The translations under genes and the position numbers were made by a program. This document shows positions 12,340 through 29,686 of a stretch of 32,000 nucleotides of DNA, piece by piece. The notes under the pieces are model-generated. The model was not told the DNA's origin. It saw only the letters and a list, made by a program, of their open reading frames with translations, and did not search any database. Position 1 is the first letter of the stretch, and every line of letters begins with the position of its first letter. Origin of the DNA: Candidatus Saccharimonadota bacterium (GTDB lineage Bacteria; Patescibacteriota; Saccharimonadia; Saccharimonadales; Saccharimonadaceae); NCBI GenBank assembly GCA_002421785.1, contig DIRZ01000002.1, forward strand, positions 150,001-182,000, written 5' to 3'.

Positions 12340-12363
12340 ATAGAATATCTTATCACTGGTCAA

Positions 12364-12600: not shown

Positions 12601-12615
12601 ATATCGAACAGAGAA

Positions 12616-13284: not shown

Positions 13285-13322
13285 ACATTTACATTATAGA
13301 TATAGATGCTACAAATGAGACA

Positions 13323-15095: not shown

Positions 15096-15142
15096 TTATT
15101 CTATTAGTATACCGTGTGACAGGCATGTAATTACAGCATAAG

Positions 15143-15667: not shown

Positions 15668-15701
15668 AGTGCTTGCTACCTTAGCTTACATTCACAAAAT
15701 G

Positions 15702-16895
15702 TCATAGTATTATGTCGGTTCCGTCGGGTGCTTTAAGCTTCCACGGACCACTATCACTCTTTGGCGTATCTGGTTTCTTCATTTTCCCAGCCTTTATATC
15801 CCGCTCTACAAGCTTTTTCAGATCTTCTTCGCGCTCGTAGGCTCGCAGGCGTCCATTTAAATACCCGAGTCGATACGAAATACCATTACTCATGAGTCGC
15901 CAGTTGGTATCCTGAAGCGCTTTTTCTACTGTTTTCTTAAGGGTCTTTTCACTATCTCGGTCGTCACGATTACTCTTTCCATCAAGGCAGTTAAATCCCA
16001 CGAATACGTCTTTACCCATTTCTGGCTTATCTAAACTGAATTCGATATAACCGGCCTTTTCAAGCGCAGGAGCAAGTATAGTATTCAACTCTGCGATCTT
16101 TGGCTTTTTCATTTCTTTCATGGCATCGTAAAGATATTTATTGTCCTCCTTCTCTTTGAACTCTTTACCAAGTCTAGCCATTTCTTGGAAATCGTGGCGC
16201 ATTTTGAATAGGCGGTCGCGGAACTCCGTATCATGCAGGCAATAATGCGCACGATCCTTGTCAAAATCAGGATCGGGTTTTTTCTCCTTGCTCATTAAGT
16301 CCATTTTATCCTTGAAGCTATGTTTACATGATGCGCACGTATATGTGATCGTGATAGCTTTTTTGGTTTTCGTTGTTTTATGTGTTTCTTCCGACTGGCA
16401 TTTTGGACATACAGTTGGTTTAACTTTCCACACCGTGCAATCTTCCCAAAAGGCGCTGTTCTTATCGCAATGAGGACAGCGCAACATGAATAACACTTCT
16501 TCTGAATCATCAATTTCGTATGTTTCACCGCGATGCATCAACGATTTGTCGATAATTCGGAGTCCCTGTTTGCCACAATGATGACACGAAGGCTCTTCTG
16601 CAAGTCGTGCTGATGATATCTGCTCGTCCTTTGCCCGATCCCTAGCAATCCATTCCTGGATTTTGCTGTCTCGTTTTTCATAGCGATCCAGCAGCTCATT
16701 GCCCACGGTTTCCATATAGAAAACATTCAGGAGAAAGGCGTTGCCAGGTTTATCAACCTTTTCTCCTTTAGGGAGTTTGCTTTCGAATTCAGAGTAAAAG
16801 TTATCGTAATGGCTCATACCGCGACGAGCAGACTCAACGGTTAGTCGATCATAAAGATTCTCGTAGTGCTGGCGTTCTTTGAGATGAGTGTACAT
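15702..16895 (-). CDS. 397-aa protein with four CxxC pairs (two predicted zinc ribbons)
   Basis: CHHCGKQG..CPHCDKNS..CPKCQSE..CASCKHS in the central region. RBS AGAGGG precedes ATG 16895. First gene after the tRNA pair. Confidence 0.65.
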   Translation of the reverse strand: MYTHLKERQHYENLYDRLTVESARRGMSHYDNFYSEFESKLPKGEKVDKPGNAFLLNVFYMETVGNELLDRYEKRDSKIQEWIARDRAKDEQISSARLAEEPSCHHCGKQGLRIIDKSLMHRGETYEIDDSEEVLFMLRCPHCDKNSAFWEDCTVWKVKPTVCPKCQSEETHKTTKTKKAITITYTCASCKHSFKDKMDLMSKEKKPDPDFDKDRAHYCLHDTEFRDRLFKMRHDFQEMARLGKEFKEKEDNKYLYDAMKEMKKPKIAELNTILAPALEKAGYIEFSLDKPEMGKDVFVGFNCLDGKSNRDDRDSEKTLKKTVEKALQDTNWRLMSNGISYRLGYLNGRLRAYEREEDLKKLVERDIKAGKMKKPDTPKSDSGPWKLKAPDGTDIIL

Positions 16896-16933
16896 GAATC
16901 CCTCTTGTTAGAAATTCGGACATAATCCGGAGC

Positions 16934-17018
16934 TCTAAGGAGGGGGATTCGAACCCCCGGAGGCTTTCACCTCGCCTGCCCCTCAGACAGGTGCCATCGA
17001 CCACTCGGCCACCCTTCC
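16934..17018 (-). tRNA. type-II tRNA-Leu(GAG) with mismatched top of the acceptor stem
   Basis: Minus strand: GGAAGGG TG GCC..GGC, anticodon arm CCTGT-CTGAGGG-GCAGG, long variable arm GAGG-TGAAAG-CCTC, T arm GGGGG-TTCGAAT-CCCCC, then TCCTTAG-A. Pairs 1:72 (G/G) and 2:71 (G/A) do not form. No encoded CCA. Confidence 0.65.
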
Positions 17019-17021
17019 TTC

Positions 17022-17136
17022 TGGTACCCAGTGCGAGATTCGAACTCGCACGCATTACTGCACGGGATTACTCAGCTCACGAACATGTTCCCGAGCTTAG
17101 GTAGTCCCGCGTGTCTACCAATTTCACCAACTGGGC
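17022..17136 (-). tRNA. type-II (Leu-like) tRNA gene with a ~30-nt hairpin-forming insertion in the anticodon loop; anticodon not assignable
   Basis: GCCCAGT TG GTG-AAATTGGTAGA-CAC G CGGGA [37 nt] TCCCG TGCAGTAATGCGT GCGAG-TTCGAAT-CTCGC ACTGGGT A CCA. Acceptor, D, variable and T arms are canonical. A TACAAT -10 box lies at 17145-17150, 8 nt upstream of the 5' end. Confidence 0.6.
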
Positions 17137-17174
17137 ATATATTTATTGTACCGCTTGTTGTAGCCATTAAAAAG

Positions 17175-18245
17175 TCAGCTGACCCCCTCTACGAATCGCA
17201 ACCGCCTAGCACCCAATGCGCTCTGCTCAGACTCGGTATACTTCGCAATCATGGTATTGATCGCCGTTCGTATAACAAAATCATTTGTACGCATGATATC
17301 GGTCTTATCAACACTATAGATTGGGGCGCTCGTTAGGTCGTCGTTGAGCAACAGCTTCCGCACTGCCTTTTGCGCCGCCGCGCTATTAGTGATGGTCACA
17401 TTCGGCAAAATCCTAATGACTTGGTCGATGCGAGATAGCACGGAGGGCCCCGCCACCAAGCACTGCATATCATTTCCGACACTCGCCGCAAAGTACGCGA
17501 GATCGACTACGACCTGCCGCCACTCCGAGTCCGGTCCGATGGTTTGCAAATCCATGGCGACCGCCTTTATATCCGGATGTCTTTGCAAAAATCGCAAGTG
17601 TTCGTCTATATCCTTTCGCCCGTGCCAAGTAATATGAGGGATTGCCGGTAATCCTGCTTCGATCATTTCTTTGTACATGATCATGCTCTTCTTTTGATTG
17701 ATTAACCTTTCGGCGTGCGGTTGATTCGCCCAGACCGAGTAGTCAGGGGGCACAATTGCATGTAGATCCAGTTTCTTGAACTCATCGATAATCCGGTGCC
17801 GCTCCGCAGCGGGCCATGCACGTTCGAGCAATGCATCATTTGCAAAACCCAACAGGATAACTTTAGTTCTCTTAGAAACCCCAAGCCGCGCATGAATGTC
17901 GGTGGCGACTTGCAATCGCTTAGCTGAAACAACGTCACTCAAACTTACAGCGACATATTTAGGAGTATATTCCCTGAATAGCTTGCCGCTGCCGTTAGGG
18001 ATAGTCGGAACATATCGCGGGAGACTGGGGTTGATCGGATTAGTAATTGCTATATCATCAAAATCAACACCGTTCACCTCGGCTAGTCGAAGAGCAAAGT
18101 CGTCAGAATCCTCCCCAATAAGGTCATACCCACGAGCGTTAATTCCTGCGGCGTTACAATGAAAATCATCATCTTCAAGCCGGTCACCAAACGGGCAATC
18201 CGATCGTCGTACATCTGTAATTTTAAGCTGCTGATGGTGTTTCAT
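17175..18245 (-). CDS. hypothetical ~356-aa protein
   Basis: Long ORF, start ATG 18245 (MKHHQQL) or GTG 18260. I cannot place it in a family. A faint TIM-barrel / transglycosylase-like impression is too weak to call. Confidence 0.6.
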   Translation of the reverse strand: MKHHQQLKITDVRRSDCPFGDRLEDDDFHCNAAGINARGYDLIGEDSDDFALRLAEVNGVDFDDIAITNPINPSLPRYVPTIPNGSGKLFREYTPKYVAVSLSDVVSAKRLQVATDIHARLGVSKRTKVILLGFANDALLERAWPAAERHRIIDEFKKLDLHAIVPPDYSVWANQPHAERLINQKKSMIMYKEMIEAGLPAIPHITWHGRKDIDEHLRFLQRHPDIKAVAMDLQTIGPDSEWRQVVVDLAYFAASVGNDMQCLVAGPSVLSRIDQVIRILPNVTITNSAAAQKAVRKLLLNDDLTSAPIYSVDKTDIMRTNDFVIRTAINTMIAKYTESEQSALGARRLRFVEGVS

Positions 18246-18636
18246 GACCGAGCACCCCACCCTTCACGATGGCGCGCAGAGTGTTTGCGCCGACACTCTG
18301 CACTTGACCAGAGTACACGTAGCCCATGGCCATACATTCTAATAGACGGTCTTTTTGCTTACCTGCATATAACGAAAACCGCCTATTGCCGACAAAGACG
18401 CCGATCTCGCCAGCATCCACCCTTGCTAGAGTGACGGTGTCGCCACGTGTCGCCCTTGGGTCATTACCTGCAGCATAATTAACCTTCAGCTCCAAGGAGA
18501 AGAGACATGCGTTTACTGACGTCTCGCTGCCCGGTGTTTCATCGCCAAACGATGAAACACCACCACCATCGCCAGCGTCATGCCTAACCCTTGGTTTTTG
18601 GACATTCTTCTGTGTTGTTCCTGAACCCCGACCCAT
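18223..18636 (-). CDS. hypothetical 137-aa protein
   Basis: ORF begins 2 nt after the DUF2188 gene and overlaps the next gene's start. Gly/charged-rich N-terminus. Confidence 0.5.
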   Translation of the reverse strand: MGRGSGTTQKNVQKPRVRHDAGDGGGVSSFGDETPGSETSVNACLFSLELKVNYAAGNDPRATRGDTVTLARVDAGEIGVFVGNRRFSLYAGKQKDRLLECMAMGYVYSGQVQSVGANTLRAIVKGGVLGHETPSAA

Positions 18637-18638
18637 GG

Positions 18639-18887
18639 CTAGTGCCTCGTATCTTTTGGAGGATTAGGATCATTTGCTGGCGCAATTGTGTCACGATCAC
18701 GGATCTGTCCGTTGGGTCGATGGATTGTGATCTCACCACCTGCACCACCGTTGCGTGCCGACTGTTTTGCTGCAGATTCTGCTTCTGCTTGTGTGTTCGT
18801 TACACCCGATGCGCGATGCGCACCAGGAAGTTTGTATTGCCATTGACCGTCCGGTCGCCGAGTTATGTGATAGTTGCGTTGAGTCAT
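18639..18887 (-). CDS. DUF2188-like small protein
   Basis: YHITRRPDGQWQYKLPGAHRASGVTNTQAEAESAAKQSA..GEITIHRPNGQIRDRDT matches the DUF2188 pattern as I remember it. Confidence 0.65.
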   Translation of the reverse strand: MTQRNYHITRRPDGQWQYKLPGAHRASGVTNTQAEAESAAKQSARNGGAGGEITIHRPNGQIRDRDTIAPANDPNPPKDTRH

Positions 18888-19006
18888 ACTAACCCCTTTC
18901 TAACGCTTATTTTTTAAACGTGACCTTCGTTCCCCTCGTCACATACAGCTAATCAATCCTTTTTGTGTTGAACAACTGCTACATTATTAGGATATTCCTT
19001 TTTCTC

Positions 19007-19042
19007 TTGCAAGTCAACATAAATAGGATTATAATATCCTAT
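19007..19042 (+). promoter_or_regulatory. sigma70-type promoter TTGCAA-N17-TATAAT with inverted repeat ATAGGAT/ATCCTAT bracketing the -10 box
   Basis: -35 at 19007-19012 and -10 at 19030-19035. Repeat arms at 19023-19029 and 19036-19042. A third TAGGATAT copy lies at 18988-18995. RBS AAGGAAAGGA precedes ATG 19061. Confidence 0.6.
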
Positions 19043-19060
19043 ATAAGGAAAGGAACAGAT

Positions 19061-19402
19061 ATGGAAGTAACCAAGTATGTAGGTGAAAAAATTAAAGAGT
19101 TCCGTACATCATACGGTGGAGGAAAGGGATTATCGCAAGAAGAATTAGGAGAGAAACTGAAAATTGCACCAAATACGGTGTCACGCTGGGAAAACGCTAC
19201 TTATAAACCCAAGTTAGTGGACCTGGACAAGCTCGCCAATTTCTTCAAGGTGCCAATTTCGGCATTCTTCCCTGCGGGCGAAGCATCAGCACCGCTAGAG
19301 GGTCTTATGCGCGCAGCCGAAGGCCTCGCCCAAGATGATATTGATGCACTCACGCAATTTGCCCAGATTAAAAGCGCACAAAATCAACTAAAGAAAAAGT
19401 AG
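19061..19402 (+). CDS. XRE-family HTH transcriptional regulator
   Basis: GLSQEELGEKLKIAPNTVSRWENATYKPKLVDLDKLANFF is a typical Cro/C1-type HTH. I chose ATG 19061 (good RBS) over the track start at 18965. Confidence 0.85.
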   Translation: MEVTKYVGEKIKEFRTSYGGGKGLSQEELGEKLKIAPNTVSRWENATYKPKLVDLDKLANFFKVPISAFFPAGEASAPLEGLMRAAEGLAQDDIDALTQFAQIKSAQNQLKKK

Positions 19403-19408
19403 ATTGAC

Positions 19409-20053
19409 ATGGAGGATCGTACCGAATATTACCGAAAAATGACCGATCTGGCACAAGAACAGCGAAGTCTCTTCGGGATACAAGGTGCAAAAATCAGTCG
19501 AACCGATTTTCGTAAGATCTACAAACACTACGGGATAGAACTTAGCCAGTGGCCGTTGCCAAACATGAGTGGCAAGCCACTCAAGAAGCTTCGTGGTGTA
19601 TACTTTCCTGACCTTCATGGCAAGCCGTCCGTTCTGGCGGCACGACTTCCTGAAGAACCGTATATCTTTACCCTCGCTCATGAGCTAAAGCACCACCTTA
19701 TGGATCGAGACTCCGCCGGAGCATTCTGCCTCTCCGAAGTAAGGGATGAGGTAAAGGAGATTGGCGCAGAGGTCTTCGCTGCAGAGTTCATATACCCTAC
19801 GAAGTTGTTTTTCGATGATCTCAATAAGCTCGGAGTAACAAAGGGCCAATGCACAGCTCGAGACTTGGTTGTGCTGAAACACCAAACGAACACCAGTCTG
19901 AGCTATGCATCGTTAGCAAAACGCGCAACTCGCACCAAATGTGCTACCGAACCTTTACCGACTTCAGGGTGGAAAAAAATTGAAATCCAAATTTACGGTG
20001 AGCCAGATTATGTACGCATTCAGCGGTACCGAAAGTTACAGAAAAGCCATTGA
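19409..20053 (+). CDS. ImmA/IrrE-family zinc metallopeptidase
   Basis: HEXXH motif in FTLAHELKHHLMD. Lies immediately downstream of the XRE gene, the classic ImmR/ImmA arrangement. Confidence 0.8.
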   Translation: MEDRTEYYRKMTDLAQEQRSLFGIQGAKISRTDFRKIYKHYGIELSQWPLPNMSGKPLKKLRGVYFPDLHGKPSVLAARLPEEPYIFTLAHELKHHLMDRDSAGAFCLSEVRDEVKEIGAEVFAAEFIYPTKLFFDDLNKLGVTKGQCTARDLVVLKHQTNTSLSYASLAKRATRTKCATEPLPTSGWKKIEIQIYGEPDYVRIQRYRKLQKSH

Positions 20054-20121
20054 TTATGTTATCCTATTATGTTTAAATTATTTTAAGGTCGTTACCGCAT
20101 GTAACTAGCTAAGACGTGAAG

Positions 20122-20190
20122 AAACGTTTTGCGTGCCGATCAAATAGCAACAATGCTGTTTGACTGACATACAAAACGTTTTTTGTTTTG
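20122..20190 (+). terminator. long hairpin (10-bp arms AAACGTTTTG / CAAAACGTTT, 40-nt loop) followed by a T-rich run
   Basis: Arms at 20122-20131 and 20172-20181, followed by ttttgttttg. Lies between the ImmA gene and ParB-methylase 2. May be a terminator or a regulatory structure. Confidence 0.35.
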
Positions 20191-20224
20191 TCGCATACAG
20201 CTCCAAAGAAAGGAGTGTCTTGTC

Positions 20225-21562
20225 ATGCCGAAAGCCAAACAAGACCTACAAATACAAACCGTAAAAATTAGCGATCTAAACCCAGCGCCGTACAATCCAC
20301 GCAAGTGGAGTGAGGAAGCAATCGCACAACTGACCGATAGTGTCCGACAGTTCGGTATGGTCGATCCACTACTTGTCAACGGCGCCGAGGGTCGCCGAAA
20401 CATTGTTATCGGCGGCCATTTCCGCCTCAAAGTAGCAAAAGATCTCGGCATTACCGAGTTACCTGTCGTATATGTAGCTATCCCAGAGCTTGAGCGAGAG
20501 AAAGAGCTTAACCTTCGTCTCAATAAAAATCTTGGCGAATGGGATATTGATCTACTAAAGGAGTTTGACGAAGCCATTCTTTCCGATATCGGCTTCAGTA
20601 GTGAAGACCTGGATGGTGTATTTGAGGTCGATGATACACCCGAAAACTTTGACCTCAAGAAAGAGCTTGAGAGGCTTGATATTCAAGTAGAAGCAAAGAA
20701 GGGTGATATTTACCAGCTTGGTAATTCTCGCCTCATGGTCGGTGATAGCACTATACCCGAGGACTTTACTAAGCTAATGAATGGTGAACTAGGAGACCTT
20801 TGCCTATGCGATCCTCCGTATCGTCTCAGCTATATGAAAGGTGGTATTCGACATGGCGAGCCTGTGACGGGCTTCGGAGCGAAACGTAACCGTCGCTACC
20901 TCGAAACTGAGGAGCTATCAGACGACTTTACTACTAAATGGATGCAAAATGTCGCTAACCACGCAAAGGAAGATTTCAGTATCATTGTGTACGAGGCGTG
21001 GCATAACCTCCGGGAGATTTGGTCATGCCTCGAGGCGCACTGGAAGGTAAAAAATATGCTTGTTTGGCACTTGCCTAACCGTCACCAAGGATTTGCTGCA
21101 AAGTATAAGTTCTTCAGTAAATACGATATTGCCATGGTCGGTGCTAGCGGTACGGTTGAATACAACCACGGAGAGGAACCAGATGGCTTACAAGAAGAGT
21201 ATGAGGCTGCCCTTTATGCTATATCTGGCAAACCCCAATGGGAGGGATATAAAAAGGGTAAGGACAAGAGGTTTATGCCAACTGACCATATCGAGTTTAA
21301 TGCCGATGACGAAAAACACTCAGGCCAAAACATTATATTCGGAACCAAACCGATCGAGATCCTACTCCCCTACATAAAGGTACTAACTAGGCGCGGAGAT
21401 CTAGTTGTAGAACCTTTTTGTGGTAGCGGCTCGACTCTAATTGCTGCGACTAAATTGCATCGTCGATGCTACGTCATGGAGAAGTCTCCAGTATATGCAG
21501 AAGTTGCCATGAAGCGATGGGAAAAATTAACTGGCCAGAAGAGGGTGAAAATAGATGAATAA
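20225..21562 (+). CDS. ParB-like N-terminal domain fused to a beta-class DNA methyltransferase (copy 2)
   Basis: RBS AAAGGAG lies 8 nt before ATG 20225, so I reject the track start at 20183. Motifs NPRKWSE..FGMVDPLLV..IVIGGHFRLK, canonical motif IV LCDPPY, motif I VVEPFCGSGSTLIA. Confidence 0.88.
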   Translation: MPKAKQDLQIQTVKISDLNPAPYNPRKWSEEAIAQLTDSVRQFGMVDPLLVNGAEGRRNIVIGGHFRLKVAKDLGITELPVVYVAIPELEREKELNLRLNKNLGEWDIDLLKEFDEAILSDIGFSSEDLDGVFEVDDTPENFDLKKELERLDIQVEAKKGDIYQLGNSRLMVGDSTIPEDFTKLMNGELGDLCLCDPPYRLSYMKGGIRHGEPVTGFGAKRNRRYLETEELSDDFTTKWMQNVANHAKEDFSIIVYEAWHNLREIWSCLEAHWKVKNMLVWHLPNRHQGFAAKYKFFSKYDIAMVGASGTVEYNHGEEPDGLQEEYEAALYAISGKPQWEGYKKGKDKRFMPTDHIEFNADDEKHSGQNIIFGTKPIEILLPYIKVLTRRGDLVVEPFCGSGSTLIAATKLHRRCYVMEKSPVYAEVAMKRWEKLTGQKRVKIDE

Positions 21563-22007
21563 GAAATGGAAAGGCAAACGTGCTCATATCCTTAGAGAAT
21601 TTCAGGAAAACCCGCTTATAACAAGAGCATGTCAAAAGATAGGAATTGCTCGCTCCACTTACTACAGGTGGTATAACTACGACGCAGACTTTCGACAAGA
21701 TGTAGACCATGCGCAGAATAGAGGACGCGAAAAACTTACCGACTTCGCTGAGTCAAAACTGCTCGAGAATATCAGGAATAACCAGTACGCATCAATTGCG
21801 TACTGGTTGAGTCACAATACAACGCGCTACCGAACATATCCAAAAAATGTTTACACTGACGAAATAAGACAACTTCGTATGGCAGAAAAAGCACTTGAGG
21901 AGATAGGAGGATTGCTCGCCAAAGACGCAGGCTATGAATCTTTGAAGCGCCTTGTTGATAATGAAATAAATAGAATAAATCACGAGTCACCCTTGAGGAA
22001 TAGCTGA
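21555..22007 (+). CDS. small HTH protein resembling a phage small terminase or regulator (copy 2)
   Basis: ILREFQENPLITRACQKIGIARSTYYRWYNYDADFRQDVDHAQ is homologous to the 8127-8741 product. Overlaps the methylase end by 8 nt. Confidence 0.7.
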   Translation: MNKKWKGKRAHILREFQENPLITRACQKIGIARSTYYRWYNYDADFRQDVDHAQNRGREKLTDFAESKLLENIRNNQYASIAYWLSHNTTRYRTYPKNVYTDEIRQLRMAEKALEEIGGLLAKDAGYESLKRLVDNEINRINHESPLRNS

Positions 22008-22015
22008 TATAATAA

Positions 22016-22156
22016 GACTGTCTAGGATTCAAACAATTAGTTAACGCAAAGTGTTTTGCGTAGTTATGCCGTAAAATGGGCAGCTACGTAAAAAAGAATA
22101 GGCATAACTGCTTGTTTGGGTCCTAGACAGTCCAGCGTGGCTGTCCTTTTTATTTT
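22016..22156 (+). ncRNA. structured intergenic element: 12-bp closing helix, two internal hairpins, and an overlapping terminator-like hairpin
   Basis: P1 GACTGTCTAGGA (22016-22027) pairs with TCCTAGACAGTC (22121-22132). P2 ACGCAAA/TTTGCGT (22044-22050 / 22055-22061). P3 AGTTATGCC/GGCATAACT (22062-22070 / 22101-22109). GACAG/CTGTC (22126-22130 / 22141-22145) followed by TTTTTATTTT. Confidence 0.45.
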
Positions 22157-22206
22157 ATATGGACTTCTTCGCTGAGTTGCGACATTACTTTGGTGAAGGA
22201 GAAGAT

Positions 22207-22797
22207 ATGCAAGAAAATAATCAACCGAATCAAGTGCACAATCATCAGCTACAACCTGTGAAGAAAAGAGGTTGGTATAAAACCTGGTGGGGAATCCTAC
22301 TAATTATACTAGGTGCCATTACTGCGATACCTGTAATAATGCTATTCATCGTTGTAGGGATCGTAATGTTTACACAAGACAACGATACAAATCCGTCTAC
22401 CAAACAGAAAGATGAAACTAGTTTGAGCCAGTCCGTTGACGAATCAAAGATTCCATATGAAGGAGTTGAGATATGGAAAATTGGTGATAACGGCCTCGGC
22501 ACAACCATCGTTATTGATCCTAAATACGACAATAGCGAGTCACTCAAGCGGCTCGGATCGGAGCTCAATAATGAAAACCAGTCGAGACAATTTGCGATGA
22601 ATTACATCTACACAGACAAGACTTCAGCCTTATATAGAAAAGAAAGCTTCTGCTCACCTGGACAGCCTGCATCAATTCGTCAGCACAAAAAAAGCTGGGC
22701 AGCTCTCTACCAAAAAGATAATTCAGGCGCAAGAATGACGATATTTACAGATCGCTCTTGCGACCCGAATGCCGCTTCAGAAACTATCGAATATTAA
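22207..22797 (+). CDS. single-pass membrane protein (variable slot of module 2)
   Basis: Strong RBS GAAGGAG precedes ATG 22207. TM segment WWGILLIILGAITAIPVIMLFIVVGIVMF followed by a soluble domain. No motif. Confidence 0.65.
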   Translation: MQENNQPNQVHNHQLQPVKKRGWYKTWWGILLIILGAITAIPVIMLFIVVGIVMFTQDNDTNPSTKQKDETSLSQSVDESKIPYEGVEIWKIGDNGLGTTIVIDPKYDNSESLKRLGSELNNENQSRQFAMNYIYTDKTSALYRKESFCSPGQPASIRQHKKSWAALYQKDNSGARMTIFTDRSCDPNAASETIEY

Positions 22798-22800
22798 GGC

Positions 22801-22828
22801 TAGACTTTGTAAACCGTTGCGGTATTGT
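22801..22828 (+). promoter_or_regulatory. conserved promoter-like motif TAGACT-N16-TATTGT (site 3, recombinase 2)
   Basis: CTAGACTTtgtaaaccgttGCGGTATTGTTGTCCTTGC. ATG 22842 lies 13 nt after the -10-like box. Confidence 0.45.
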
Positions 22829-22841
22829 TGTCCTTGCAGTC

Positions 22842-24125
22842 ATGCTGGACAACAATACTCAATCACTAAAATATTGCCTGTACGCTCGGAAAAGCTCCGA
22901 GAGCGACGAGCGTCAGGCAATGAGTATTGATTCACAATTAGCGGAAATGAGATCCCTCGCTGAAAACGAGGGATTAGATGTTGTGTGCGAACTACAAGAG
23001 AGCCATTCAGCAAAAGACTCTGGAAAGCGTCCTGTATACAACAAGATGTTAGCCGGTATCGCTAATGGCGAATATAACGCGATTCTCACCTGGGCACCAG
23101 ATCGTTTGAGTCGAAACGCCGGAGACCTTGGGTCTGTTGTCGACCTTATGGACCAGCATAAGCTACTCCACATACGTACATATTCCCAAACATTCACCAA
23201 TAGTCCAAATGAGAAATTCCTCCTCATGATTCTCTGCTCACAAGCCAAGCTTGAAAACGATAACAAAAGCATCAATGTAAAACGCGGCATACGCACAAAA
23301 TGCGAGATGGGCTGGCGACCTGGTGTTGCTCCACTTGGCTACATGAACCGAGCATTCGGAGGTATCAACGATATCATTATCGATCCCGAACGTGCCGACC
23401 TCATCAGAGAAGCATTCCATAAGGCAGGATACGAACGATGGAGCGGGCGCAGAATTAAAGCTTGGCTCGACGAAAAAGGATTTACTAATCGATCAGGAAA
23501 ACCGATAAGTATCAGTCAAGTGCTAGTGATACTAAACACCCCCTTTTACTACGGAAGGTTCCAGTATCCAGAGGCACCTGATGCACCGTGGTATGATGGC
23601 GCACATAAACCACTCATCTCCAAAGAATTATTTGACCAGGTACAAGAGACTCGTGGCGTTAACAAGGGTGTATGGAGGTCAAAAACCTTTGCCTTTCGTG
23701 GTTTGCTCAAATGCGGACAATGCGGTGCTGACATTACCGCACAGGATAAATTCAAAACACTAAAAAAGTCCGGTGAGGTAAAGCGATTCGTCTACTATAA
23801 CTGTACGAGACGGAAAGATCCGAATTGCACTGAGAAATATATAAACGAAGACAAGCTGTGCGAACTTTTGAAAGACTTTATTGAAACACATCATTCCGAA
23901 ATCAAGATCGGTGACAAATTGCGTGCAAAGGTAGATAAGCATATGTATGTCACCAACACTTTGCTCACCCATTACAATATCGATCGGGAGTTGAGTGACC
24001 CATTCGTAGAATACGCGAGATATGTGCTCATAAGTGGGACTGAGAACGAAAGAACAAGTTTAGCAGCTGGAATAGAGACAACCATCCAGATCAAGCATGG
24101 CATTCTCGAATTTTGGCCTAAGTAA
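22842..24125 (+). CDS. large serine recombinase (copy 2)
   Basis: MLDNNTQSLKYCLYARKSSESDERQAMSIDSQ.., LTWAPDRLSRN, zinc ribbon CGQCGAD..YYNCTRR..C. The N-terminal ~150 aa are nearly identical to copy 1 at protein level, while the DNA differs at many synonymous sites. Confidence 0.9.
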   Translation: MLDNNTQSLKYCLYARKSSESDERQAMSIDSQLAEMRSLAENEGLDVVCELQESHSAKDSGKRPVYNKMLAGIANGEYNAILTWAPDRLSRNAGDLGSVVDLMDQHKLLHIRTYSQTFTNSPNEKFLLMILCSQAKLENDNKSINVKRGIRTKCEMGWRPGVAPLGYMNRAFGGINDIIIDPERADLIREAFHKAGYERWSGRRIKAWLDEKGFTNRSGKPISISQVLVILNTPFYYGRFQYPEAPDAPWYDGAHKPLISKELFDQVQETRGVNKGVWRSKTFAFRGLLKCGQCGADITAQDKFKTLKKSGEVKRFVYYNCTRRKDPNCTEKYINEDKLCELLKDFIETHHSEIKIGDKLRAKVDKHMYVTNTLLTHYNIDRELSDPFVEYARYVLISGTENERTSLAAGIETTIQIKHGILEFWPK

Positions 24126-24693
24126 GATGAGCTGCGGCTAAAAGTACGGCAATAAGCGCGTCCGTACCTTTATCTGCAAGCCATTTAACAATATTTACTA
24201 TTCTTGGCTTATCTTTCGTTTCTTTTTTAAGCTCATCAAGCAGTTCCTGTACTTTCTCCTGTACCTCATGGTCATACTGAGAGAGATTTATAGTCTGAGT
24301 GATTTGCTGAACTTGCTGCTGACTAATTGTAAGGTTTAAGATAACTTTATCTTGCAAAGGTTTGACTGAACTCTCATTTGTCGAGCCAGGATCATATCCC
24401 CATGTTTCAAGTTCTTCTATTAAGGATTTTATAAACGCCTCTGAATTATCTAGCCCTTGATGATATGCTCGAGCATATCTTGCGCTATTGTCCTGCCCAC
24501 CAATAGTCATACCTGGCGAGAACCTTACGCGATCTGCTTTCTGTTTATATGAGTCACCCATACGTTCACAGGTTGACTTAACCGTATTCCACCAAGTGGT
24601 AAAAGTTGGCTCCCTATAGTCATTAAACTTTCTGAGTTCAGGTAACTGTTTGAGTTTCGCATTGAAAAAATCTATAAGCTTTTCAGTATTCAT
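24118..24693 (-). CDS. hypothetical 191-aa protein (convergent cargo of module 2)
   Basis: RBS GGAG precedes ATG 24693. Its stop overlaps the recombinase stop by 8 nt. No motif. Confidence 0.6.
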   Translation of the reverse strand: MNTEKLIDFFNAKLKQLPELRKFNDYREPTFTTWWNTVKSTCERMGDSYKQKADRVRFSPGMTIGGQDNSARYARAYHQGLDNSEAFIKSLIEELETWGYDPGSTNESSVKPLQDKVILNLTISQQQVQQITQTINLSQYDHEVQEKVQELLDELKKETKDKPRIVNIVKWLADKGTDALIAVLLAAAHLT

Positions 24694-24704
24694 ACTGACT
24701 CCAG

Positions 24705-24732
24705 TATATATCCTCGCCTACAGATAGGTCTA
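24705..24732 (-). promoter_or_regulatory. promoter-like TAGACC-N16-TATATA upstream of the 191-aa gene
   Basis: Minus strand reads CCTAGACCtatctgtaggcgaggaTATATAC. Same CTAGAC-type -35 as the three plus-strand sites. Confidence 0.4.
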
Positions 24733-24807
24733 GGAATCGGGTCGGCTTTTTGCCTGCTTGCTTTCCTGGAGCTTGACAGGTCGGTGTTAGAACTAAATTA
24801 CAGAGGT

Positions 24808-24840
24808 GAAAATGAAAGAACCGCCCTTTTGGACGGTTCC
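24808..24840 (-). terminator. terminator-like hairpin in module copy 2
   Basis: Minus strand reads GAACCGTCC-AAAA-GGGCGGTTC followed by TTTCATTTTC. Confidence 0.45.
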
Positions 24841-24942
24841 AACATTTTGTACCTTTTGAGCTCGACTCAAAATTCTTGCTTAAGTAAGGAGTTAAGGAGA
24901 GGCCGGTTACGGAACTCGGTCATCTATTTTAACTGCTTGCTC

Positions 24943-24977
24943 TGGCTCCGGCGACTGGATTCGAACCAGGCGCCTAT
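24943..24977 (-). pseudogene. displaced 3' fragment of a tRNA-Asn-like gene (variable loop, T arm, acceptor 3' strand, G73, CCA)
   Basis: Minus strand reads AGGCGCCTGG-TTCGAAT-CCAGT-CGCCGGA-G-CCA. The matching 5' strand TCCGGCG is absent upstream. Similar but not identical to the 3' half of the intact gene at 29007-29047. Confidence 0.75.
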
Positions 24978-25049
24978 ACCACCATTTTCCTGGTTCACCA
25001 TACTATAGCTTACATCTGCCATTAATCATAATAATCTGTGTATTACTGG

Positions 25050-25778
25050 CTAAAACAGGCTCAGCCAGTAATCTGACCATCGATAGAATAGCAACATAAA
25101 GATAACAGTATAAGTTATAACGATAAGCTCATACTTGTAGCTGAACAGTTTATTCAGTTTTTCGCCGAGGTTTATGTATTTGTGCCGTATGCAGTATGCG
25201 GTCACCATCCATAGCAGCGCGAACGTCACCAGCCACACCAGCATACAGTACAAGCATAATTTTCCGATTACAAAGACACCCTGGTAAAACAGCCACGTAC
25301 AGAATCCGGCGCCAAAGACGATGCCGCCGAGGAGCGTGCGCCACAAGGCCCTATGCAGTTTTACCGCCCCGGCAAGAATCGTCATGCCGGCTGCGAAAAC
25401 CGCGGTATAACCGAATATACCTATGAACGAATTGGCAAAGCCGAAAGCACTCGCCTGCGGGCTGGCGATGATGGGCGAACAGGCCACGATCGGACTCAAG
25501 CTGCAGCTTGGATCGTGAGCCGGCTGAGTCAGTATCTCTATCTTTTCGATGGATAGGATGATCGCCGCACTCACCCCAATGACAGCGAGAACCGTCATCC
25601 ATCGTGCCAATAAGATCTCCGGTTTCAGGTTCTGCCCGCGCTGGATAATCGCCGTCAGTAACACAAGAGCTACGACGGCGAGATATACATACTCTACTTT
25701 GCTACGAGCCACAAATACGGCCACAAACAAATAGACTATCGGCAAGAGAACAAAGTATTTACGTAGTAAAGTAATCAT
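25050..25778 (-). CDS. vitamin K epoxide reductase (VKOR) family membrane protein
   Basis: Polytopic membrane protein with loop cysteines CSLSPIVAC and the CxxC motif GKLCLYCMLVW. ATG 25778 lies 1 nt after the upstream stop. The track start at 25799 is an alternative. Confidence 0.8.
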   Translation of the reverse strand: MITLLRKYFVLLPIVYLFVAVFVARSKVEYVYLAVVALVLLTAIIQRGQNLKPEILLARWMTVLAVIGVSAAIILSIEKIEILTQPAHDPSCSLSPIVACSPIIASPQASAFGFANSFIGIFGYTAVFAAGMTILAGAVKLHRALWRTLLGGIVFGAGFCTWLFYQGVFVIGKLCLYCMLVWLVTFALLWMVTAYCIRHKYINLGEKLNKLFSYKYELIVITYTVIFMLLFYRWSDYWLSLF

Positions 25779-25779
25779 C

Positions 25780-26067
25780 TTAGAAATCGAATAGATCACC
25801 CAAAAAGGACTCTTTGCGCTTTTTGCGAGGGTACCCTTGGTCGTAGTTCACCGGCCGGCCATGTTTATCGTATTGTGGTGGGTAGCCGGAGTTCTGATAC
25901 GGCTCCGGCGCAGGTGATGACGTGGTCTGAGAGACCGCCCCCCGCTCAATGATCTTATCCAGCTCACCTCGGTCCAACCAGACACCACGGCACTTGGGAC
26001 AATAATCTATCTCGACGCCTTGGCGGTCAGTCATTACCAGTTCAGTATTGTCTATGGGGCATTGCAT
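25780..26067 (-). CDS. zinc-ribbon (TFIIB-type zf, COG3809-like) protein
   Basis: MQCPIDNTELV..IDYCPKCRGVWLDRGELDKII is the typical family signature, followed by a Pro/Gly/Tyr-rich tail. Confidence 0.8.
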   Translation of the reverse strand: MQCPIDNTELVMTDRQGVEIDYCPKCRGVWLDRGELDKIIERGAVSQTTSSPAPEPYQNSGYPPQYDKHGRPVNYDQGYPRKKRKESFLGDLFDF

Positions 26068-26079
26068 ATGTCATCTCCT

Positions 26080-27990
26080 TTACTTATTCACTATAGCAAC
26101 TTCATTGGCTCCGGCATTAAACAGACGCAGGCCGTTGAGGACGACCAGGACAGCCATAACCGCGTCTGCCGCCACGGCCAAGCTTAGACCGATCACCCCG
26201 GCGATGCCGAGTACCAGGATAACACCCTTGACTATGATTGATCCGTAGACATTCTGACGGACAACCCTGAAAGTTTGCTGGCCGACATCCAGTAGGTATG
26301 GAATAGTGCCTATAGCGTCATTCATCAGTGTTACGTCCGCCGTTTCTATCGCTACGTCCGAGCCGCCACCCCCCATGGCGATACCCACATCCGCTCGAGC
26401 CAAGCTCGGCGCGTCGTTCACACCATCGCCCACCATGGCTACTCGCTGATACCGGGCTTGCAGCTTGTCGATAAGTTCTGCTTTTTGCTCAGGCAGCAGT
26501 GCTCCGTACGCCTCGCTGATACCGACTTTTTCCGCGATATAATTCGCTGCCCGCTGATTATCTCCGGTCAGCATCACCGGCGTGACCCGTAGCTTATTCA
26601 GCGCGTCTATGACACCCTTTGAATCGTTACGCAATTCGTCGGTGATACCTATGATACCGATGACCTTTTTGCCCTCACTGACAAGCACGGCCGTCATCCC
26701 CATGCCTTCCAGTCGTTCCACTTCCGGCAATACATGTTCGCACGTCTCGGCGCTAACGCCGATATGCTGAAGATTGCCGATAGCGTGCTCCTTGTCGCCG
26801 CAGACCATACAATTGGCGTTGCCGCCACGACCGGCTACGTTTTTGAACTTGTCCATTTTGTGCGGTTTAATGCCCTTTTGTTTGGCATAATCTTCTATCG
26901 CCTTAGCTAGCGGATGCGAAGAGAATTTTTCAATTCCCGCAGCATCTCCTATGACGTCCTCTTCCGTAGCGTCATGCAGCAGCACTACTTCAGCCACCAC
27001 AGGGGTTCCGACGGTCAGTGTCTTTGTCTTGTCGAAAGCGATTGCTCTGGTCTTGCTCAAGACTTCCAGGAAACGGCCTCCCTTGATGAGCACACCCCTA
27101 CGCGATGCACCGCCGATTGCCGCCGCCACGGCGACAGGCGCCGATACCACTAGCGCATCCGGACAAGCGAGCACCAGCAGGATAAGTGCTTTTGTAAACC
27201 AGTCGCTGAACGGTTCGCCGAAAAAGACCGGCGGCACGACAGCTACCAGCAGGGCCAGCCCGATCGCTGCCGGTATATAATAACTCGCAAACTTATCCAA
27301 AAATTCCTGCATCTCTGGCCTGGATTTTTGAGCCTCAGAAATTAATGTGACAATTTTTTGCAGCGTACTGTTAGCGGCGGTTTTGGTGACTTTTACCTCC
27401 AGATAGCCGCTCTGGTTTAAGGTACCGGCGTAGACGGCTTCACCTTTATATTTCTCTTTTGGCACGCTCTCGCCGGTAATAGTCGCCTCGTCGACCGATG
27501 ACTCGCCGTCGACTACCACGCCGTCCAGCGGCACCATGTCACCGGGACGGACTTTGACTATTTCACCTTCCTTGACTTTCTCGACCGGCACTTCACGGCC
27601 ATCTTGTAAGCGGGCGATTTTCGGCGCGGATTTGAGAAGCGCCGCCACGGCCTTTTGCGAGCGGGCTTCGCCGAATTCCTCGAAGGCTTCAGCCAGTGCA
27701 AAGAAGAACATCACGGCAGCAGCCTCGGCGAATTGGCCAAGGTACAGCGCGCCAAGTGCGGCAATCGTTACCAGCAGGCTGATGGATATTTTACGTTTCA
27801 ATAGTTTTCGGACAGCCGATATTGCAACAGGAGTACCTCCCGCAGCCAGCGACACCAGGTACAGTATTTCCGCCCCGGGCAACTTAAACAGGCTGCACGC
27901 CAAACCAGCAACAAAGCTGACGGCGGCAGTAGCGGTCAAAGCCTTGTTCATGCGGTTTGATTCGTTTTCTTCGGCATGGTTATCGCTCAT
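26080..27990 (-). CDS. P1B-type heavy-metal-translocating ATPase with atypical motifs and no N-terminal metal-binding domain
   Basis: TGES (ITGESVP), MLTGDN and MVGDGVNDAPSLA are present. The phosphorylation motif reads FDKTKTLT instead of DKTGT. The TM metal motif reads ACPDAL instead of CPC/CPH/SPC. Confidence 0.85.
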   Translation of the reverse strand: MSDNHAEENESNRMNKALTATAAVSFVAGLACSLFKLPGAEILYLVSLAAGGTPVAISAVRKLLKRKISISLLVTIAALGALYLGQFAEAAAVMFFFALAEAFEEFGEARSQKAVAALLKSAPKIARLQDGREVPVEKVKEGEIVKVRPGDMVPLDGVVVDGESSVDEATITGESVPKEKYKGEAVYAGTLNQSGYLEVKVTKTAANSTLQKIVTLISEAQKSRPEMQEFLDKFASYYIPAAIGLALLVAVVPPVFFGEPFSDWFTKALILLVLACPDALVVSAPVAVAAAIGGASRRGVLIKGGRFLEVLSKTRAIAFDKTKTLTVGTPVVAEVVLLHDATEEDVIGDAAGIEKFSSHPLAKAIEDYAKQKGIKPHKMDKFKNVAGRGGNANCMVCGDKEHAIGNLQHIGVSAETCEHVLPEVERLEGMGMTAVLVSEGKKVIGIIGITDELRNDSKGVIDALNKLRVTPVMLTGDNQRAANYIAEKVGISEAYGALLPEQKAELIDKLQARYQRVAMVGDGVNDAPSLARADVGIAMGGGGSDVAIETADVTLMNDAIGTIPYLLDVGQQTFRVVRQNVYGSIIVKGVILVLGIAGVIGLSLAVAADAVMAVLVVLNGLRLFNAGANEVAIVNK

Positions 27991-27994
27991 GAAA

Positions 27995-28279
27995 TTAGTT
28001 GCCTCCCCCTGTCAAAAACTGCAGCGGATTTGCGATAACCTGTTGCCACAGGGCATTAATGAAATCAAGTGCATAATTCCATAGTGATTTGATGATATTA
28101 CCGACACTTTGCCCAATCCCGCTATCGGCCTGTCCGAGCAAGGCGCCGATGACAGCTATGATGATCGAGCCAATTATCAAAAGTATAACAAGCAGTACAA
28201 ACCCGACGAGCAGAGCTGCTATAACCAGTTTTTTCTTATTTATACGGCTTAATTTATCAAATTTGTATCCGTGGCTCAT
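27995..28279 (-). CDS. 94-aa membrane protein
   Basis: One long hydrophobic segment (LVIAALLVGFVLLVILLIIGSIIIAVIGALL). Tightly spaced between the ArsR and ATPase genes. Confidence 0.55.
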   Translation of the reverse strand: MSHGYKFDKLSRINKKKLVIAALLVGFVLLVILLIIGSIIIAVIGALLGQADSGIGQSVGNIIKSLWNYALDFINALWQQVIANPLQFLTGGGN

Positions 28280-28296
28280 AAGTATACCTTTCTTTT

Positions 28297-28623
28297 TTAT
28301 TTATGTTCGCCGCTCTTGATGTGATCGGCTTGTGTAAACGCGTGTTCGATGAACTGAAGCACATGATCATTCTCAGCACTATAGAATATTTTCGTACCGG
28401 CACGTCTGACGCGCACCATGTGAGACATGCGTAGTTTTGCGAGATGCTGTGAGACTACAGCAGGTTTTACCCCTACGTCTTCTGCAAGCTCACCCACCGA
28501 ATGCTCACCGTGCAAGAGTGCCCATAATATTTTTAAGCGCGTCGGGTCGCTCAGCAGTTTAAATATCCCGGTAGCTATATCAAGGCGTGCATTTGATAAT
28601 TCTTTGCGTATATGCGCAGACAT
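28297..28623 (-). CDS. ArsR/SmtB-family metalloregulator
   Basis: LLSDPTRLKILWALLHGEHSVGELAEDVGVKPAVVSQHLAKLR is a winged-HTH signature. His/Asp/Glu-rich C-terminus (NDHVLQFIEHAFTQADH). I chose ATG 28623 because the predicted promoter lies inside the longer track ORF. Confidence 0.85.
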   Translation of the reverse strand: MSAHIRKELSNARLDIATGIFKLLSDPTRLKILWALLHGEHSVGELAEDVGVKPAVVSQHLAKLRMSHMVRVRRAGTKIFYSAENDHVLQFIEHAFTQADHIKSGEHK

Positions 28624-28629
28624 GCATAT

Positions 28630-28659
28630 ACTATAGCAAAATGCTCCTCTTATTCGCAA
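28630..28659 (-). promoter_or_regulatory. TTGCGA-N18-TATAGT promoter, giving a leaderless or near-leaderless arsR-like mRNA
   Basis: Minus strand reads TTGCGAataagaggagcattttgcTATAGTatatgcATG. Confidence 0.4.
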
Positions 28660-28740
28660 GGTTAGTATTGTCATTGGCACATCCTATCAGGACAGATGAG
28701 CAGAACTGAACCCTTATTAGGTACTAATAAGCGTGTAGTA

Positions 28741-29006
28741 CATCAGACATAAAAGTCCTGCTGAGTGTTTACCTGACTTAAATCAGGGACAGGTCTGGGG
28801 AACAGGTCCGAGTTTTGGCTGCCTGTTCCTTCAGGACGAGAGAGGCCGAGTTCGAACTGACTTACAGAGGTGCCTACGAAAGAACCGCCCTTTCGGACGG
28901 TTCCAACATTTTGTACTTTGTTATCAGCACATTGTTTCTTGGCTGAGTAAGGAGAGAAGTTACGGTCAGGTCTAGGACCTTGGTCTGCGCTTTTCTCTGC
29001 TTGCTC
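28741..29006 (-). repeat. tRNA-Asn-linked non-coding module, copy 3 (directly downstream of the intact tRNA-Asn)
   Basis: Begins right after the encoded CCA with GAGCAAGCAG. Contains the conserved hairpin and the blocks shared with copies 1 and 2. Confidence 0.8.
28877..28904 (-). terminator. terminator-like hairpin in module copy 3
   Basis: Minus strand reads GAACCGTCC-GAAA-GGGCGGTTC followed by TTTCGTAGG, a weak U-tract. Confidence 0.4.
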
Positions 29007-29315
29007 TGGCTCCGGCAGCTGGGCTCGAACCAGCGACCTAATCGTTACACATAACCACATGTTTTCACATATGTGTGGACTATCTCATCATCCATTTTCA
29101 GGATGCGGGGCGCTATTTGAAAGAGTATTGCTTGAGGACTCACTTTCTAGTCTCTGAACCTTCCTAGCGTTATAACCTCTAGCTAGGCTTGGCTGCGGAT
29201 TCCCGTATCACAATTGTGACGTAGGCTTCCCGCAATTCACCCCGTTGACACCATACAGTTACCTGTATGGGCTGCCTTTTGACAGCGATCCGCTCTACCA
29301 CTGAGCTATGCCGGA
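29007..29315 (-). tRNA. tRNA-Asn(GUU) interrupted by a group I intron (exon 1 29315-29282, exon 2 29047-29007)
   Basis: Joined exons: TCCGGCA TA GCTC-AGTGGTA-GAGC G GATCG-CTGT|TAA-CGATT AGGTC GCTGG-TTCGAGC-CCAGC TGCCGGA G CCA, 75 nt. The architecture closely parallels E. coli tRNA-Asn (U1-A72, G73, loop CUGUUAA). Confidence 0.85.
29048..29281 (-). ncRNA. group I intron (IC3-like, 234 nt) in the anticodon loop
   Basis: The 5' exon ends in U and the intron ends in G. P1: exon GCUGU pairs with intron GCAGC (29275-29271), with U.G at the splice site. P2 hairpin CCATACAG-GTAA-CTGTATGG. Core elements: P GAATTGCGGGAAG (29238-29226), Q GAATCCGCAGCC (29202-29191), R GGTTCAGAGACTAGA (29160-29146), S GAGATAGTCC (29086-29077). 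Confidence 0.85.
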
Positions 29316-29365
29316 ATAAGGTGCTTCTGCGCGCAAGAACGCGCAGATACAGATGCTATTTTATA

Positions 29366-29686
29366 TCATTTTCCCACCGGTGTAAACACTCTGACTCCGA
29401 GTTCAATTTCCCGGTGACAATTCGCGCACACCAATATACATTTATCGAGTTCGGCTTTAATTTTTTCCCATGACCTCGTATAGCCCTTAGCACCTATACT
29501 AAATTCCTTCGTCGCTGGGTCAAGATGGTGAAAGTCGAGCACACCAGGGTGCTCAGAATAACCACATAAGACACACCTACCGCCTTTGTACTCAATTGAT
29601 TTTATCTTGATAGACCGTCTACGCTTCGCAACCGCTGCGATAAGGTACTCGCGGCGGTCCGCATACGTTCGCTTTTCGTTAGCCAT
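29366..29686 (-). CDS. HNH endonuclease
   Basis: CVLCGYSEHPGVLDFHHLDP....LVCANCHREIE is an HNH / zinc-finger signature. Start ATG 29686 (MANEKRTY) or GTG 29704. Confidence 0.8.
   Translation of the reverse strand: MANEKRTYADRREYLIAAVAKRRRSIKIKSIEYKGGRCVLCGYSEHPGVLDFHHLDPATKEFSIGAKGYTRSWEKIKAELDKCILVCANCHREIELGVRVFTPVGK

Follow-up and report, generated by a model that had tools for sequence, protein, structure and literature searches.

The window analysed here is a stretch of 32,000 nucleotides (nt) from Candidatus Saccharimonadota bacterium (GCA_002421785.1, contig DIRZ01000002.1, positions 150,001-182,000, forward strand). It carries three homologous non-coding modules of about 220 nt each, all on the minus strand, and the first base of each module comes right after the ...GGAGCCA of a tRNA or tRNA-like 3' end. 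Read along the minus strand, the order is tRNA-Asn, module A with a metal-resistance cassette, a pseudo-tRNA, module B with an island that we call beta (down to 12582), and then the tRNA-like far-end (P) arm of island beta, module C and a further island, gamma. In both islands a gene for a large serine recombinase (LSR) converges on the module. The explanation that we favour, and to which we assign a probability of roughly 0.72, is that each module copy is the tRNA-proximal, recombinase-side end of a Saccharibacteria island moved by an LSR whose integration site is the very 3' end of tRNA-Asn.

The modules occupy 28788..29006 (copy A, nhmmer E 2e-61; alignments A1, A2 and A5), 24723..24942 (copy B, profile E 2e-59) and 12355..12575 (copy C, profile E 7.5e-67), the last two being placed also by their hairpins and by the positions of a repeated motif, M. 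The original prediction, which had proposed a non-coding module present three times, is confirmed in this respect: the first bases after the CCA are 29006, 24942 and 12575 as it claimed, the module profile finds each copy with E 1e-59 to 1e-67, and the mean column identity among the three aligned copies is 70%. The other end that it gave for copy A, 28741, lies about 47 nt too far out. The homology ends at about 28788, 24723 and 12355, just past the second copy of the 17-nt M motif, and all the relatives described below show the same stop a few bases after that motif. The profile search detected no fourth copy in the window, and a candidate at 2080-2100 was discarded as a chance match, being the GSDLNPAA motif within a methylase-like open reading frame (ORF). 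Among 24 diverse modules, stop codons interrupt all six frames in 17, and the remaining 7 do not agree on which frame is open; a small-protein reading was rejected, as the module holds no conserved ORF. Rfam has no family for it either: a scan of the window with Rfam 15 at the gathering threshold gave a group I intron and a tRNA-Leu and no match to the module, and E-value scans of copies A and C gave chance-level matches only (E >0.4). We addressed the relationships of the module by hidden Markov model search and explicit pair counts. A literature search found no paper describing such a module.

Each module has five parts: an LSR-side arm, a P1/P2 hairpin around the first M motif, a central hairpin rich in G.U pairs, a degenerate internal copy of the attachment (att) region, and the second M motif. 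The 17-nt motif itself, GACCnnGTTCCnnGACC, is present in every copy as two direct copies (M1 and M2) separated by 177-180 nt. With up to two mismatches it has seven matches in the window against 0.39 expected, six of them inside modules. In copy A, the P1/P2 hairpin (28945..29006; this and all other parts are on the minus strand) was delimited by RNAalifold, pair counts and the minimum-free-energy fold; it starts at the first base after the CCA and encloses M1 (28969-28985). The central hairpin (28882..28904) reads GGAACCGUCC-GAAA-GGGCGGUUC and is followed by UUUC. Unit 2 (28788..28870) is a degenerate copy of a T-arm-like sequence, a 3'-end-like sequence and the M motif, and ends in M2 (28792-28808). 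The same parts are found in copy B (P1/P2 24942..24882, M1 24905-24921, central hairpin 24818-24840, M2 24727-24743) and in copy C (P1/P2 12575..12513, M1 12538-12554, central hairpin 12449-12471 followed by UUUUUU, M2 12358-12374). A profile of unit 2 matches the T-arm-to-M1 region collinearly in about 40 loci, including two places in the window, 24968..24903 (E 0.003) and 12603..12537 (E 0.012). Conservation by blocks is highest in the central hairpin (0.87), followed by M1 (0.83) and M2 (0.81); it is 0.42-0.57 in the spacers and 0.38 just after M2.

The tRNA at the head of the array is the integration target. It is a tRNA-Asn(GUU) gene at 29007..29315 on the minus strand, which we read from the sequence as exon 1 (29315..29282), intron (29281..29048) and exon 2 (29047..29007). 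The intron, of 234 nt, splits the anticodon between U35 and U36, its second and third bases, and is matched by the Rfam group I intron family RF00028 at 29291..29056 with 75.2 bits. Because this intron splits the gene, ARAGORN misses it and reports only a tRNA-Leu(GAG) at 16934-17018 in the window. The exons are identical to the intron-less tRNA-Asn genes of four of the loci compared in this work, which are numbered with an L (L059, L149, L150 and L151), and a promoter-like site, TTTACA-17-TAAAAT, lies upstream of the gene at 29386..29358. Of the three tRNA or tRNA-like ends that had been described before the modules, the tRNA-Asn is real and intron-split; a full-length, decayed pseudo-tRNA precedes copy B, and copy C is preceded by an island end that is conserved. 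The tRNA-Asn of a second Saccharibacteria genome (CP064995.1, L147 10570-10867) also has a group I intron, at the identical position, and our literature search turned up no earlier mention of such introns in the tRNA-Asn of Saccharibacteria. In L149 (8800-9170), an ORF of 82 amino acids (aa) of the GIY-YIG type and a duplicated, disrupted 5' part of tRNA-Asn lie just upstream of the intact gene, which looks like a homing-endonuclease insertion at the same tRNA gene.

A search of genomes with a pattern composed of the hairpin and a TACAAAA block returned 24 loci. Further homologues were recovered in this way: 22 of these loci are module copies from Saccharibacteria-type metagenome-assembled genomes (two titled only 'bacterium'), and the other two, L040 and L048, are chance matches. 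An intact tRNA-Asn(GTT) directly precedes the module in 13 of these genome loci, and tRNA-like ends precede it in the others. In L038, L049, L053, L054, L055, L057 and L060 a stretch of 0-5 kb of cargo separates the module from a converging LSR. We also scanned metagenomes with the LSR as the seed, which gave 80 loci. In those with an LSR at least 62% identical and enough flank, the module is always present downstream of the LSR and on the opposite strand; it abuts an intact tRNA-Asn in 19 metagenome loci. The distance from M2 to the LSR stop codon varies from about 40 nt to about 5 kb, and L055 and L091 contain two modules each.

Six orthologous loci (L146-L151) were chosen via a neighbouring beta-lactamase-like gene, that is, independently of the module. 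In four of them (L148-L151) the tRNA-Asn has no module and no LSR nearby, and in L148, L150 and L151 it is followed by a plain terminator, so the module is not a constant companion of tRNA-Asn in the relatives. Of the other two, L146 has a decayed scar and L147 (CP064995.1) has the intron-containing tRNA-Asn, a module and an LSR. The module has also spread horizontally. Type C modules from nine genomes are 93.1% identical over 140 non-coding nt, against 83.3% for the tRNA-Asn bodies beside them; being more alike than the host tRNAs, the modules travel with the island. The break in this identity is at GGAGCCA; each acceptor 3' strand is still host-specific and complementary to its 5' strand. 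The module at L042 3434-3661 is a mosaic, with a first half of type C, a second half similar to type A and a switch near the central hairpin, from which it appears that the module types have recombined.

More distant LSRs, at 48-58% identity (metagenome loci within L097-L145), converge on tRNA-Gln, Glu, Lys, Met, Trp or Ser, and the LSR clades sort by target tRNA. The flanks after these tRNAs contain a motif of the type GACC..GTTC..GACC about 20-27 nt past the tRNA end, and in the readable trailers of L097, L101, L106, L109, L110, L115 and L139 a terminator hairpin is found within about 130 nt. The hairpin at the position of M is itself the terminator in type D modules (L061, L063) and in L097, L101, L115 and L139. 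A ParB-methyltransferase is a core gene common to the LSR relatives, and this set looks like a family of serine recombinase islands targeting tRNA ends across the Candidate Phyla Radiation (CPR).

Two junctions between elements lie in the window. The pseudo-tRNA-Asn before module B (24943..25016, minus strand) is full-length and decayed and retains the T-arm and the acceptor 3' strand, as seen in its alignment with L041 and L051. In these two loci the same decayed sequence precedes the module, and junctions of this type occur also in L055, L075, L091, L092 and L104; this pseudo-tRNA appears to be a far-end (P) arm joined to module B. The second junction lies between 12582 and 12581, where the P arm of island beta (12576..12615, minus strand, TTCTCTGTTCGATATAGTTCGTGACCTGTACGGGGAGCCA), which begins right after the stop codon of a 222-aa gene, is joined to module C. 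A near-identical P arm, AGTTCGTGACCTGTATGGGGAGCCA, precedes the module in the IMG/VR contigs L061 and L063, both of which contain such a P arm-module junction. The sequence before copy C, AGTTCGTGACCTGTACGGG followed across the junction by GAGCCA, is near-identical in those contigs, and a homologue of the 397-aa gene of island beta (p397) lies there on the P side. The shared arm and the p397 homologue indicate that the sequence before copy C is an island P arm and not a random scrap of tRNA. A third class of junction, (C)CCACTAGnGG joined to GAGCCA, is seen upstream of modules in L047, L052 and L053, and in L053 it is a perfect 12-nt palindrome; junctions of this class do not have the ACCYCTGT block that is present at other island ends.

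The hairpin GGAACCGTCCGAAAGGGCGGTTC occurs three times in the window with up to one mismatch, against 0 expected. The central hairpin has a 10-bp stem with a tetraloop; its extension included, it folds at about -19.5 kcal/mol, within the range of -12 to -21 given by the native terminators of empty sites. The GNRA loop (GAAA) that had been noticed in it is present in copies A and C, and copy B has AAAA. The earlier argument on its strand, which contrasted a C/A mismatch on the plus strand with a G.U pair on the minus strand, holds across the relatives: the pair table of the 24 modules (alignment A5) has 41 G.U cells and 1 A.C cell, so the tRNA strand is the one that favours this hairpin. The central hairpin, whose tail is UUUUUU in type C modules and UUCUUUC in types A and B, is probably a replacement terminator for the tRNA. 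The same hairpin sequence serves as a gene-end terminator in unrelated phage contigs. The exact hairpin GGAACCGTCCGAAAGGGCGGTT with a run of T closes a gene in about 30 of these (IMG/VR, L002-L036), mostly from one metagenome, a convergent use of one terminator sequence. A pattern search with the hairpin only was thus unspecific, as it matches these unrelated terminators, and one based on M1 gave no matches in viral contigs.

In the RNAalifold structure of the same 24 modules a helix begins at the first base after the CCA and is formed by P1 (7 positions, 6 bp around an unpaired base) and P2 (5-7 bp), with M1 enclosed. Pair counts over the 24 modules reveal covariation in this helix. The P1/P2 cells are paired in 90.8% of cases against 74.2% in shuffles (0/500 shuffles reach the observed value) and 29-54% when the partner is slid. 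The cells changed on both sides number 49 against 20.4 in shuffles (0/500), and the covariation score is 0.47 against 0.195. The compensatory changes that the original prediction would look for are therefore present, and independent ones are seen in L049, L053, L058, L071, L078, L079, L082 and L086. The strand bias of P1/P2 is weak, with 16 G.U and 11 A.C cells. Module folds are also more stable than their shuffles (z -3.0 and -4.5).

From these observations we propose that the LSR integrates within or next to the ...GGAGCCA at the tRNA-Asn 3' end. The break of identity at GGAGCCA and the host-specific acceptor strands would put the crossover in the final ~7 nt of the tRNA or immediately behind them. 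A crossover upstream of the T-arm, which is the usual pattern of tyrosine integrases, was rejected because the acceptor 3' strands are host-specific and complementary while standing beside near-identical modules, and a crossover inside M1 is unlikely because M1 lies between the two strands of P1, which covary as a linked pair. The first 25-45 bp after the CCA (..AGCAG..AAA.. and then M1) would be the island-side (P') recombination arm, with M as a possible protein-binding site; this segment is conserved even in relatives targeting other tRNAs. The far end of the island (P arm) would be tRNA-like, made of a T-arm and an acceptor 3' strand. As integration would displace the native trailer and terminator of the tRNA, P1/P2 and the strong tRNA-strand hairpin would replace them, ending the tRNA transcript and shielding the island genes, and in the excised circle the same hairpin would end the operon at the far end of the island. 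The last ~90 bp, the degenerate internal att duplicate with the second M site, could be a fossil of earlier stacking or a secondary or accessory site.

Since the tRNA end would be left intact or restored, the site would be reusable and arrays would grow on the tRNA-proximal side, new islands inserting beside the tRNA and older ones being pushed outward. The three module copies of the window would then reflect the stacking of three islands or cassettes at a single tRNA. The presence of diverged copies in two mobile modules, left without explanation before, would follow from the module being the tRNA-proximal end of each island, as serial insertion leaves a row of such ends. Among the roles suggested previously, a tRNA terminator and recombinase arm sites fit best, and a promoter with a 5' untranslated region (UTR) does not, given the relatives L038, L079 and L084 discussed below.

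Several points weigh against this explanation. The crossover is bounded solely by the break of homology, and neither an attR with native flank nor a circular junction was found for the islands of the window. The att sites of known LSRs span about 40-50 bp, and most of the 220 bp would then be unneeded for recombination as it is understood at present. The M sites are direct repeats, unlike the two-fold half-sites of LSRs. A candidate attP dyad, ACCYCTGT and ACAGRGGT separated by ~40 nt (imperfect, ~56 bp), flanks a few P-P' junctions and is found also inside unit 2; its 6 matches in the window against 2.4 expected are not significant. As for termination, a simple terminator consensus scan called none of the module hairpins, and the tract in types A and B is merely UUCUUUC. 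Neither an att site nor a terminator by itself predicts the compensatory changes in P1/P2. Finally, island gamma continues past the low edge of the window, and the first cassette, behind copy A, has no recombinase, its mobility being only assumed. The latter is probably a recombinase-less derivative of an island, since its set of arsR, ATPase and zinc-ribbon genes is ordinary cargo between module and LSR in L071-L073.

A tentative alternative is that the whole module serves recombination, with M1, M2 and the internal att-like unit as accessory sites for the LSR or for a directionality factor and with the hairpins incidental. Such sites would set the direction or topology of recombination, by analogy with resolvase res sites II and III or with Xis sites. 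The M1 and M2 blocks are indeed the best conserved outside the hairpins and the homology stops right after M2; M-like motifs are repeated two to three times in relatives that use other tRNAs (L097, L101, L106, L107) and appear also in P arms (GTTCCGTGACC); and unit 2 retains an att-like geometry. However, the most conserved block is the central hairpin, and its strand-specific G.U pairs and U-tract point to transcription. Besides, accessory sites are not known to us for large serine integrases.

A functional RNA is a more doubtful alternative. The tRNA-Asn promoter would drive a trailer of ~135 nt, formed by P1/P2 with M1, a linker and the terminator hairpin, which would be cut from the tRNA and would serve the island as a small RNA or in cis, for example by reporting the integrated state or by binding an island protein. 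The helix that starts at the first base after the CCA, with its independent compensations, the stability of the folds against shuffles, the preference of the central hairpin for the tRNA strand and the promoter-like site upstream of the tRNA are all in agreement with such a trailer. The weak strand bias of P1/P2 and the lack of an Rfam match are not, and P1/P2 is absent from the modules of type D, L097 and L101, where M1 itself forms the terminator. Also, M is conserved as a sequence, even past the terminator (M2) and in P arms, which suggests that it is read as DNA, and the internal copies B and C have no tRNA promoter.

We also regard as quite unlikely that the CCA-adjacent hairpin that displays the M motif is a working structured nucleic acid, either an RNA that reports integration or a folded or accessory recombination element. 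As RNA, it may be made only when an island sits behind the tRNA promoter, and would report or enforce the integrated state; as a recombination element, it may belong to an LSR family whose att region is long, has several sites and includes an arm that mimics the tRNA. To our knowledge neither version has been described for large serine recombinases.

Much less probable is that the module is a terminator followed by the promoter and 5' UTR of the next minus-strand gene (arsR, the 191-aa gene and the 325-aa gene). A same-strand gene does follow each copy in the window, and M2 of type C contains TTGACC. Against this, in L038, L079 and L084 the converging LSR stops within ~40 nt of the module and there is no same-strand gene; M2 of types A and B has no -35-like sequence, a promoter scan found none inside the modules, and the promoter-like site of arsR (28659..28630) is outside the module. 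Last, it is hardly credible that the module is a non-coding RNA gene of the chromosome, a regular part of the tRNA-Asn locus in Saccharibacteria downstream of which islands merely insert: the module does lie directly after tRNA-Asn in 13 genome and 19 metagenome loci, but these were selected via the module or the LSR, the loci chosen by synteny show empty tRNA-Asn sites (L148, L150 and L151 contradict it), module types do not track the host tRNA sequence, and copies follow pseudo-tRNAs and island ends.

The remaining genes of the window are those of the cassette and the two islands. The cargo of the first cassette (25050..28680, minus strand) comprises, according to Pfam, an ArsR-family regulator, a small membrane protein, a P-type ATPase, a zinc-ribbon protein and VKOR. 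The sole promoter-like site of arsR, TTGCGA-18-TATAGT (28659..28630), falls inside the GTG-started ORF 28297-28680, and the true start of arsR is probably further downstream than this GTG. Island beta would extend over 12582..24948 on the minus strand, with boundaries deduced from its two junctions. Its LSR (22758..24125, plus strand) contains the Pfam domains Resolvase, Recombinase and Zn_ribbon_recom and converges on module B, with a 191-aa cargo gene (24118-24693, minus strand) as the sole gene in between. The island contains, in addition to module B, this cargo and the LSR, a terS-like gene, a ParB-methyltransferase, an ImmA-like (protease) gene, an XRE repressor, a DUF4417 gene, tRNA-Leu(GAG), the 397-aa gene, a Macro gene, a 590-aa gene, the 222-aa gene and the P arm. 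Homologues of p361 and p397 occur in LSR elements elsewhere. The tRNA-Leu(GAG) (16934-17018, minus strand) lies inside the proposed island, between the DUF4417 gene and the 397-aa gene, which encodes a zinc-ribbon protein, and appears to be an island-borne tRNA.

The LSR of island gamma (10074..11378, plus strand) has the same three Pfam domains and converges on module C; it is 92-98% identical to the LSRs beside type C modules in L049, L053, L057, L060 and L066-L068. The only gene between it and module C is a 325-aa cargo gene (11386-12363, minus strand). This gene had been labelled HEPN; neither Pfam nor PADLOC gives a match to it. Its counterparts in L060 and L066 are 95-99% identical and occupy the same cargo slot. 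At 1-6412 on the minus strand, island gamma carries genes for DUF499 (HmaC-like, PADLOC E 1.7e-193) and DUF3780 and, cut by the edge of the window, a DUF1156-like methylase ORF; together they are a candidate cluster for anti-phage defence. A ParB-methyltransferase gene is common to both LSR regions of the window, and among solved relatives the closest to the window LSR is SPbeta SprA/YokA (E 2e-08). The intron-containing tRNA and the ORFs of 636 and 590 aa had raised the idea of a cyanobacterial or type V-K CRISPR transposon (CAST), which was rejected on the basis of the Pfam results (a P-type ATPase and unrelated genes) and because the relatives are Saccharibacteria.

What seemed an orphan RNA element would then be the characteristic end of serine-recombinase islands, a family directed at tRNA 3' ends in Saccharibacteria and in further CPR bacteria. 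The module marks island boundaries, which aids the annotation of these tiny genomes at a site of defence and metal-resistance cargo. Each integrase with its att sites (the tRNA-Asn 3' end with the P arm and the module) makes a natural pair that might be tried for site-specific integration in bacteria for which genetic tools are scarce. Should recombination turn out to require the long flank, the M repeats or the tRNA-like arm, the view of site recognition by LSRs would widen, and an accessory-site role of M1, M2 and unit 2, if true, would be new for large serine recombinases.

The closest published parallel is that of the tycheposons of Prochlorococcus, in which 910 of 937 elements use a tyrosine recombinase (bioRxiv 10.1101/2020.12.28.424599). 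In the model proposed for them, integration takes place at the 3' part of the tRNA, the gene is restored by the incoming element and older arrivals are pushed away; partial tRNA copies separate the elements, some cassettes have no integrase and the integrase clades are sorted by tRNA (bioRxiv 10.1101/2020.12.28.424599). The window shares with tycheposons and classical tRNA islands the stacking at one tRNA, the tRNA-like repeats between elements and the sorting of recombinase clades by tRNA. It differs in that its enzymes are large serine recombinases, in a CPR lineage, whereas the tRNA-associated tyrosine recombinase is the hallmark of tycheposons, and in that their repeat is a tRNA fragment of ~40 nt and here a flank of ~220 nt starts after the CCA and is matched by a tRNA-like arm at the far end.

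Another parallel is the staphylococcal cassette chromosome SCCmec, whose Ccr LSRs leave a conserved gene functional when they insert at its 3' end and which forms tandem stacks, with recombinase-less pseudo-elements and short att repeats in between. LSR insertion that spares the gene and stacking that includes recombinase-less elements are common to both systems; the target of SCCmec, however, is rlmH and not a tRNA, its repeats are of ~15-20 bp and its LSRs are only distantly related. We know of no long structured flank in SCCmec. The integrases of phiC31, Bxb1, A118/LI and SPbeta resemble those of the window in the Resolvase, Recombinase and zinc-ribbon architecture, in a site that adjoins the integrase gene and in a possible ~56-bp dyad. 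The att sites of phiC31, Bxb1, A118 and SPbeta span about 40-50 bp, have no accessory repeats and are rarely in tRNA genes. In contrast to sites of the phiC31/Bxb1 type, the P arm of the window mimics the target tRNA, a further ~170 bp are conserved, and the native B' sides of the empty sites are not.

The module also resembles intrinsic terminators and the RNAs derived from 3' external transcribed spacers (ETS) of tRNAs in its GC-rich hairpin, tetraloop and U-rich tail after a tRNA, and its structured trailer could perhaps be released as an RNA as the 3' ETS RNAs are. The terminators at the empty sites lie a few nt past the tRNA; in the module the terminator hairpin is ~110 nt past the CCA and a second conserved helix precedes it. 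In sum, repeated att-side ends of islands stacked at a tRNA gene are a known kind of feature, and what sets this case apart is the use of an LSR in a CPR lineage, the partly structured flank of ~220 nt, the far-end arm that mimics the tRNA and the repeated 17-nt motif.

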